A DNA stretch of 64,000 nucleotides from Escherichia coli (GTDB taxonomy: Bacteria; Pseudomonadota; Gammaproteobacteria; Enterobacterales; Enterobacteriaceae). Of this stretch, positions 45,086-45,143 are shown piece by piece (within the stretch, counting starts at the first letter, position 1; every line of letters starts with the position of its first letter). The stretch is from NCBI RefSeq assembly GCF_001677475.2, contig NZ_CP015229.1; one strand, written 5' to 3'. Below the pieces are notes generated by a model, which was not told the origin of the DNA, ran no database searches, and was given only the letters and a program-made list of their open reading frames with translations. A program made the translations under genes and the position numbers.

Positions 45086-45102
45086 TCCTTAAGTAGATAG
45101 TT

Positions 45103-45135
45103 AAAAAGCGAAACACAATGTGTTTCGCTTTTTTT
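45103..45135. terminator. Bidirectional rho-independent terminator shared by fabF and the convergent fimbrial operon
   Basis: aaaaa-gcgaaacac-aat-gtgtttcgc-ttttttt: perfect stem flanked by an A-run and a T-run. Confidence 0.8.
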
Positions 45136-45143
45136 ACGTCAAC

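Follow-up and report, generated by a model that had tools for sequence, protein, structure and literature searches.

A fimbrial operon at the fabF-pabC site of an Escherichia coli genome: probable import by homologous recombination from a non-coli Escherichia, together with its putative terminator

When an accessory locus lies between core genes and carries no trace of a mobile element, is it an old resident, or can it have arrived recently by another route? The question is raised by a 64,000-nucleotide stretch of Escherichia coli DNA (contig NZ_CP015229.1; hereafter the window, meaning the whole 64-kb stretch), in which a six-gene fimbrial operon, the island, separates fabF from pabC and its distal pilin gene converges on fabF across a short spacer holding a single hairpin. 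An earlier note on this DNA placed the island boundary at that spacer, took the hairpin to serve both convergent transcripts and, finding no integrase, insertion sequence (IS), transfer RNA (tRNA) or direct repeat, read the locus as old and stably integrated; as checks, it proposed a direct-repeat search at the junctions and a comparison with an empty site. Our analysis leads to a different answer as to age: very probably, a cassette reaching from 45019 to ~51900 replaced the E. coli fabF-pabC spacer, having been imported by double homologous recombination from a non-coli Escherichia, and the hairpin came along with it. The elements on which this answer depends are the following, in window positions.

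43844-45085, + strand: fabF (beta-ketoacyl-ACP synthase II), with the Pfam ketoacyl-synt N and C domains
44764-52284: inferred imported tract from a non-coli Escherichia donor, delimited by the outermost donor-type informative sites
45019 to ~51900: deeply divergent replacement cassette within the imported tract
45086-45143: spacer of 58 bp between the convergent stop codons
45103-45135, both strands: putative bidirectional intrinsic terminator, from direct sequence reading and RNA folding
51485-52294, + strand: pabC, chimeric by its identity profile and informative sites

The window aligns with E. coli A3, which is free of the island, at 98.2-98.5% identity over 3-45076 and at 97.3% over 51671-63913, with nothing alignable between, and its backbone is that of E. 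coli. At the left edge, fabF is 99-100% identical to its E. coli counterpart over most of the gene and 84.7% identical in the last 85 bp; island-type sequence makes up the final 67 bp (45019-45085), with differences in the last two codons, so that FabF ends in KRV* as opposed to the KKI* of E. coli. At the right edge, the first ~415 bp of pabC (to ~51900) have 53-71% DNA identity to E. coli pabC, followed by 100% over 51901-52100 (an E. coli-type patch), 93% over 52101-52294 (donor-type) and 98-99% from 52295. In the encoded protein, identity to E. coli PabC is 54-66% in residues 1 to ~138 and 100% in residues 139-200, and the N-terminal parts of the window and E. coli proteins are about as distant from each other as either is from Citrobacter PabC. 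Informative sites divide both flanks into a mosaic. On the left, E. coli-type sites extend to 44731 and are followed by donor-type sites at 44764-44854, by E. coli-like ones at 44887-44959 and, from 45019, by island-type ones. On the right, donor-type sites at 51490-51892 and 52141-52284 enclose an E. coli-type stretch at 51929-52099, and E. coli-type sites resume at 52318. The true breaks in homology lie inside fabF (its last ~67 bp, from 45019) and inside pabC (its first ~415 bp, to ~51900) rather than at 45086/45143 or at the promoter end of the operon, which moves the island boundary away from the facing stop codons of fabF and the pilin gene, where it had first been drawn. Because both flanking genes are partly replaced, the arrangement would not be the product of an insertion.

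The distribution of the island points the same way. Neither it nor a near relative was found by megablast or blastn in any of the 5,426 complete RefSeq E. coli genomes, 5,424 of which match the window through its flanks only, and a more sensitive search of complete E. coli genomes returned only usher paralogues at 65-71% identity. By exact-protein look-ups the island occurs in E. coli, E. ruysiae, "unclassified Escherichia", Escherichia sp. MR and Escherichia sp. 93.0816; this fimbrial type is rare in E. coli and is found in E. ruysiae-like lineages. The operon adjoins fabF in all 22 island-bearing loci examined (L059-L080), with pabC at the far end in each of the 12 that reach so far. Three of these loci (L059, L060 and L063) have a backbone 99-100% identical to that of the window. 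Others (L061, L062 and L064-L070) match the window at 89-95% identity in the flanks and E. coli at 93-94% in fabH-fabD, yet over the segment 44901-52294 they reach 97-100% identity to the window. In sum, copies of the island in non-coli Escherichia are 98-100% identical to it, although the backbones that carry them are 5-11% different from that of the window. Two further loci (L076 and L079) combine an E. coli backbone, with fabH-fabD 99% identical to the window, and an island subvariant that is ~94% identical, which suggests a separate import and hence at least two independent imports into E. coli.

On the explanation we favor, the cassette would comprise the last ~67 bp of fabF, the 58-bp spacer, the six-gene type-1/Lpf-like operon, its AT-rich control region and the first ~415 bp of pabC. 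It would not be self-mobile, and would move between genomes by double homologous recombination anchored in fabF on the left and, on the right, in the conserved core and 3' half of pabC and in yceG. Two layers of history would be superimposed: an old one, which would have produced the deeply divergent cassette itself (45019 to ~51900), and a recent one, in which a tract of ~7.5 kb (~44764-52284), with small E. coli-type patches inside it, would have entered an E. coli host from a non-coli Escherichia of the E. ruysiae or cryptic-clade kind. The hairpin at 45103-45135 would in this way have replaced the E. coli fabF terminator. Integrase, IS, tRNA and direct repeats would be missing because such a cassette is not self-mobile and was moved by homologous recombination, so that the absent mobility signature would reflect the mode of transfer and not age. 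Many hotspots of horizontal gene transfer (HGT) are known that have no mobile elements and show raised homologous recombination in their flanking core genes, with double recombination in those genes as the proposed mechanism (PMC5635113). The fabF-pabC site resembles this model of hotspots free of mobile genetic elements (MGEs), with its excess of recombination in the flanking core genes (PMC5635113; PMC2617782): the core genes on either side are mosaic, and the island (98-100%) is more similar between genomes than are the flanks (89-95%).

The search for mobility signatures agreed with what the earlier note had read from the letters. No tRNA or transfer-messenger RNA gene was detected in the whole 64-kb window (ARAGORN), no Rfam family matched at the spacer or at either junction, and the proposed direct-repeat search, carried out in dot-plot style over 44600-52400, gave no repeat pairing both junctions; the repeat families present there are either C-terminal motifs conserved among the pilin paralogues or brief matches due to chance. 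No integrase or transposase gene adjoins the operon, the window being colinear with A3 outside 45077-51670 and therefore leaving no space for one, and none encoding an integrase or recombinase was found within the island, for whose open reading frames (ORFs) Pfam gives only fimbrial domains. Of the classical features of a genomic island, the locus has a divergent base composition and lacks the integrase, the tRNA site and the direct repeats.

That composition, with a guanine-cytosine (GC) content of 41-48% in the operon and 34-39% in the control region as compared with 50-57% in the flanks, is what one would expect if the operon had entered the spacer by site-specific or transpositional insertion, through an integrase or transposon acting in trans or since deleted, its target duplications having eroded. 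The nearest E. coli paralogue of the usher adds to this, since the integrative conjugative element that contains it, with a recombinase and an invertase close by, indicates that related operons can ride on mobile elements. An insertion, however, would leave its target intact, and here other sequence stands in the place of the 119-bp spacer of E. coli, its terminator, the fabF tail and 415 bp of pabC, none of which has been displaced or duplicated. The two junctions have no repeat in common, the 64-kb window contains no mobility gene, and the junctions are identical in 12 further assemblies belonging to different species. We regard such an insertion as extremely improbable, the replaced ends of the flanking genes appearing largely to refute it. 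The fimbrial operon that contains the paralogue in question (71% identity at the DNA level, the closest in complete E. coli; L086, E. coli 2012C-4502, NZ_CP027440.1) has a tyrosine-type DNA invertase and a recombinase at its flanks, unlike the signature-free island, and is unrelated to the fabF-pabC site.

Could the operon instead be an ancient, vertically inherited resident whose insertion scars have decayed and which island-free E. coli have lost? Diverged operons occupy the same site in Escherichia marmotae and Citrobacter braakii, a KRV tail and a bidirectional hairpin are common to all alleles, and the missing integrase, tRNA and repeats would fit as well. Simple deletion, however, predicts the ~5-8% divergence usual within the genus, whereas the 5' half of pabC differs by 29-47% and the fabF tail by 15%. 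Vertical residence also predicts equal divergence of island and backbone, and the island is instead 98-100% identical where backbones are 5-11% apart; donor-type alleles reach past the cassette into E. coli-type flanks, and the island is missing from all 5,426 complete E. coli genomes. We therefore consider vertical residence unlikely. What stands of the idea of an old, stable locus is the occupancy of the site, to which the E. marmotae and C. braakii alleles attest; in the window genome itself the island does not appear old, given its absence from complete E. coli genomes, its near identity across distant backbones and its mosaic flanks. In the comparison with the empty site the ends of the flanking genes are replaced, and the step from a signature-free junction to great age fails.

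If the cassette was imported as we propose, what is the hairpin that came with it? The gap in which it lies is exactly as first described, the fabF stop (TAA) occupying 45083-45085 and the stop codon of the convergent pilin gene 45144-45146 on the - strand, and the hairpin with its A5 and T7 is likewise upheld by direct reading and by folding. It consists of A5 (45103-45107), the stem GCGAAACAC (45108-45116), the loop AAT (45117-45119), the other arm GTGTTTCGC (45120-45128), which pairs perfectly with GCGAAACAC over 9 bp, and T7 (45129-45135); read on the - strand, an identical stem is followed by U5, the complement of A5. The fold energy of a 71-nt stretch containing it is -24.0 kcal/mol for the + strand and -22.1 for the - strand, as against means of -8.6 and -7.3 kcal/mol for shuffled controls (z = -6.0 and -7.1, respectively), and 0 of 200 shuffles folded as well, a stability well beyond chance. 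The stem begins 22 nt past the fabF stop and, on the other strand, 15 nt past the pilin stop. As in intrinsic terminators generally, a stable stem-loop directly followed by a U-tract is present, here on both strands and just 3' of two convergent genes, and by inference the hairpin would act on transcripts from either side as a Rho-independent terminator, with the stem and U7 at the end of the fabF transcript and the stem and U5 at the end of the fimbrial one.

Placement and build are thus in keeping with the two-way termination that the earlier note had proposed, with the difference that the element is not the resident terminator of fabF. In island-free E. coli the fabF-pabC spacer is 119 bp long and has a different hairpin, AAAAGGTCCGC-TTGC-GGGCC-T6, and the 58-bp spacer has no alignable similarity to it (45% identity in a forced alignment). 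Because island-free E. coli has this other hairpin, that of the window is not E. coli's own fabF terminator; it travels with the island and the last ~67 bp of fabF. Its stem is unchanged in 12 other island-bearing assemblies, the sole difference being T7 versus T8. At the equivalent place, E. marmotae has A6-GCGGAACGC-tcag-GCGCTCCGC-T8 and C. braakii has A6-GCGGAGCGCC-cag-GGCGCTCCGC-T8, to be compared with A5-GCG-AAACAC-aat-GTGTTT-CGC-T7 in the window. All three alleles share the design A5-6/GCG...CGC/T7-8, with the inner stem altered on both arms. This is conservation of structure over sequence, as a terminator would show, in three independent haplotypes only, so that covariation support is thin.

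The same two species give the site its deeper history. C. braakii ATCC 51113 (L005, 8651-14652) has a six-gene operon in the same order between fabF and pabC-yceG, with 41-67% amino acid identity to that of the window, and E. marmotae HT073016 (L084, CP025979.1, 4560-10513) has another allele, at 48-70%, which was found only through a protein look-up of the FabF KRV tail. FabF ends in KRV in the window type, E. marmotae and C. braakii, and in KKI in the island-free E. coli A3 and RIVM and in sampled FabF sequences of E. coli, Salmonella and Enterobacter, drawn from a protein cluster for whose loci the presence of the island was not checked; Klebsiella has KKV. In the 5' half of pabC, the haplotypes of E. 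coli, the window and E. marmotae share 53-68% DNA identity with one another, rising to 95-100% from about nucleotide 420, the start of the conserved IKHLNRLEQ stretch, which we take to hold the lysine that binds pyridoxal phosphate (PLP); at the protein level, the N-terminal version of E. marmotae PabC is 71% identical to that of the window. E. coli provides the empty state of the site; the operons that fill it, always with fabF and pabC as neighbors, are of the window type, its ~94% subvariant, or the types of E. marmotae and C. braakii. From these comparisons, occupancy of the site by fimbrial operons is old at the level of genus and family, and the fabF tail, the terminator and the pabC 5' half are linked to whichever allele is present.

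These data also bear on the direction of transfer. The three Escherichia haplotypes are about equidistant in the pabC 5' half, none being obviously native, and two of the three have the operon, as would be expected if the island haplotype were native to Escherichia and the island-free E. coli haplotype, with its KKI tail, its own terminator and its own pabC 5' half, were the import, the window lineage having escaped replacement or regained the old allele. Against this, the KKI tail is common to Salmonella and Enterobacter and is thus likelier to be the ancestral state, and donor-species alleles at species-level divergence flank the cassette in an E. coli backbone, which makes the direction clear for the window. 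We judge this reversal very unlikely; it bears on deep history only and leaves the conclusion for the window genome unaffected.

More tentatively, Escherichia and Citrobacter may have at fabF-pabC a fimbrial locus that, much like the O-antigen locus, has long existed in multiple alleles. Diversifying selection would maintain these deeply diverged alleles (41-70% amino acid identity), homologous recombination would carry them from one species or genus to another, and each would bring with it the same design of fabF tail and terminator and its own PabC N-terminal domain. We raise this as a possibility that we are inclined to doubt. If it were true, natural PabC proteins would be chimeric in their domains, with differences of 35-45% between the N-terminal halves found in a single genus, and the island control region would now supply the promoter of pabC, which might tie expression of the folate pathway to a variable run of G residues.

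Several observations weigh against import by homologous recombination from a non-coli Escherichia, or against parts of it. Recombination and its direction are read from mosaic patterns in comparisons with two E. coli references and four donor-type genomes, and the left crossover is poorly resolved because fabF offers few informative sites. The non-coli Escherichia compared are all island-bearing genomes. Among species-representative genomes the nearest usher, at 67% identity, is that of C. braakii, in a scan whose exact peptide patterns did not match, and so missed, the 70% identical usher of E. marmotae. For the divergent N-terminal 138 amino acids of PabC, no donor was found among 5.8 billion proteins, the best matches reaching ~68% and being mostly short partial proteins. 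As to the terminator, its activity is a prediction from sequence and folding, and a simple consensus scan did not list the hairpin, presumably since its definition of a stem lets the A-tract pair with the T-tract; given this miss, the call depends on the sequence and the folds.

What kind of fimbria does the cassette encode? The island consists of six genes on the - strand, which form a chaperone-usher operon by Pfam and NCBIfam. From the fabF side to the pabC side, its features are as follows.

45144-45671, - strand: distal minor fimbrial subunit, FimG/FimF-like, 175 aa (amino acids); Pfam PF00419, NCBIfam below cut-off
45686-46210, - strand: minor fimbrial subunit, FimG-like, 174 aa; NCBIfam, with PF00419 on the gene in other assemblies
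46217-47212, - strand: 331-aa protein, probably a two-domain tip adhesin; gene calls of other assemblies
47241-49814, - strand: outer-membrane usher, 857 aa; Pfam PapC_N, Usher and PapC_C, and NCBIfam
49844-50521, - strand: periplasmic chaperone, 225 aa; Pfam PapD_N and PapD_C
50538-50566, between the major-subunit and chaperone genes: perfect 14-bp inverted repeat, AGGTAAAACCGAGT / ACTCGGTTTTACCT, from a repeat search
50596-51129, - strand: major fimbrial subunit, 177 aa; Pfam PF00419 and NCBIfam
51130-51484, between the fimbrial operon and pabC: AT-rich divergent control region of 355 bp, island-type

An usher, a PapD-like chaperone and Fimbrial-family subunits occur together here, as in operons of the gamma clade, and NCBIfam groups the operon with type 1 / Lpf / Sti-like fimbriae. 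None of the six proteins reaches an NCBIfam equivalog cut-off that would give the fimbria a named type, the best equivalog model for the usher scoring 874 bits against a cut-off of 995. The FimG-like subunit at 45686-46210 is 173 aa long in the calls of some assemblies. The putative adhesin has no Pfam family and no PDB match by sequence search; its longest ORF extends to 47257 (346 aa) and overlaps the end of the usher gene, and in other assemblies it is mostly called at 331 aa from 47212, with one call of 340 aa. Fimbrial operons often have an attenuating or mRNA-stabilizing hairpin between the major-subunit and chaperone genes, which sets subunit stoichiometry, and the inverted repeat at 50538-50566 may be such an intra-operon attenuator or RNA-stability hairpin.

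Within the control region, a run of seven G residues (51343-51349) lies inside the spacer of a sigma-70-like match at 51325-51353 (TTGTGA, 17 nt, TACAAT), the only such match upstream of pabC. Nowhere in the region do island-bearing assemblies vary more than in this run and its flanking bases (G5ATTT, G7T, G7TT and G7GG), and the run could tune the spacing of the pabC promoter or of a fimbrial one. A fimS-type phase-variation switch was considered and rejected, there being no recombinase gene in the island and no inverted repeats seen flanking the promoter region. Farther from the locus, identity to A3 dips to 94.8-96% in tmk/holB (53501-54000), with a few donor-type sites at 53626-53740; this dip may be a separate small patch of recombination or ordinary E. 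coli polymorphism. The Rfam matches elsewhere in the window are those expected for this region of E. coli: an rne 5' untranslated region (UTR) element (36297-36633), the SraB small RNA (sRNA; 38494-38662), the PyrC leader (14550-14599) and the ES036 sRNA (5377-5419).

The wider lesson of the locus is one of interpretation. That a junction has no integrase, tRNA or repeats does not mean that it is old and stable, and comparison of the flanks with those of an empty site can reveal a recent homologous import from another species. The fabF-pabC site would be an unusually clean worked example, because both crossover zones can be read within fabF and pabC and because the terminator of the host appears to have been replaced by that of the island; in the process pabC, a gene of an essential pathway, would have been turned into a natural chimera. 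Current understanding of how islands move is not changed by it, and we see in it a clear but ordinary case of a known process.

How, finally, does this locus compare with systems already known? In enteric bacteria, gnd reportedly hitch-hikes with the O-antigen (rfb) locus, as Nelson and Selander are said to have described in 1994. The likeness is that a housekeeping gene beside a diversifying surface locus acquires divergent, mosaic inter-species alleles through co-transfer. At the fabF-pabC site, by contrast, the effect is confined to the 5' half of pabC and the last ~67 bp of fabF, and the neighbor encodes fimbriae instead of a polysaccharide; that these fimbriae are under diversifying selection is an assumption of the comparison.

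The hairpin, for its part, can be set beside the bidirectional terminators between convergent E. coli genes that are ascribed to Ju et al. 2019 in a later preprint (bioRxiv 10.1101/2022.10.23.513370). As in that account, one element between convergent stop codons would set both 3' ends; the window element differs from it, so far as the account goes, in being a textbook symmetric intrinsic terminator (A-tract, perfect stem, T-tract) that is predicted from sequence.

For the operon, the natural reference is the catalogue of Wurpel et al. 2013 (PMC3559732), the text of which defines E. coli chaperone-usher types by usher phylogeny and locus position and invokes horizontal transfer or homologous recombination for such loci. 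Like the types described there, the island is a gamma-type operon, with a major subunit, a chaperone, an usher, an adhesin-like protein and two minor subunits, at a fixed chromosomal position. Unlike them, it lies between genes (fabF, pabC and yceG) that go unmentioned in that text, reaches no equivalog cut-off and is absent from the 5,426 complete E. coli genomes; our literature search found no paper combining fabF, pabC and fimbrial. As far as that text of the catalogue extends, this is an uncharacterized fimbrial operon, at a position not mentioned there by its flanking genes, that is exchanged by a well-known mechanism.

The closest likeness is with the MGE-free hotspots (PMC2617782; Oliveira et al. 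2017, PMC5635113), which, like the fabF-pabC site, combine a fixed position between core genes, alternative contents, the absence of integrase, IS and tRNA, and mosaic flanking core genes. The site differs from them in the resolution at which its history can be read, the breakpoints being legible at near base-pair resolution inside both flanking genes, and in the reach of the exchange, which would have crossed species, from a non-coli Escherichia into E. coli, and which extends, in its deeper layer, to divergence at the level of genera.
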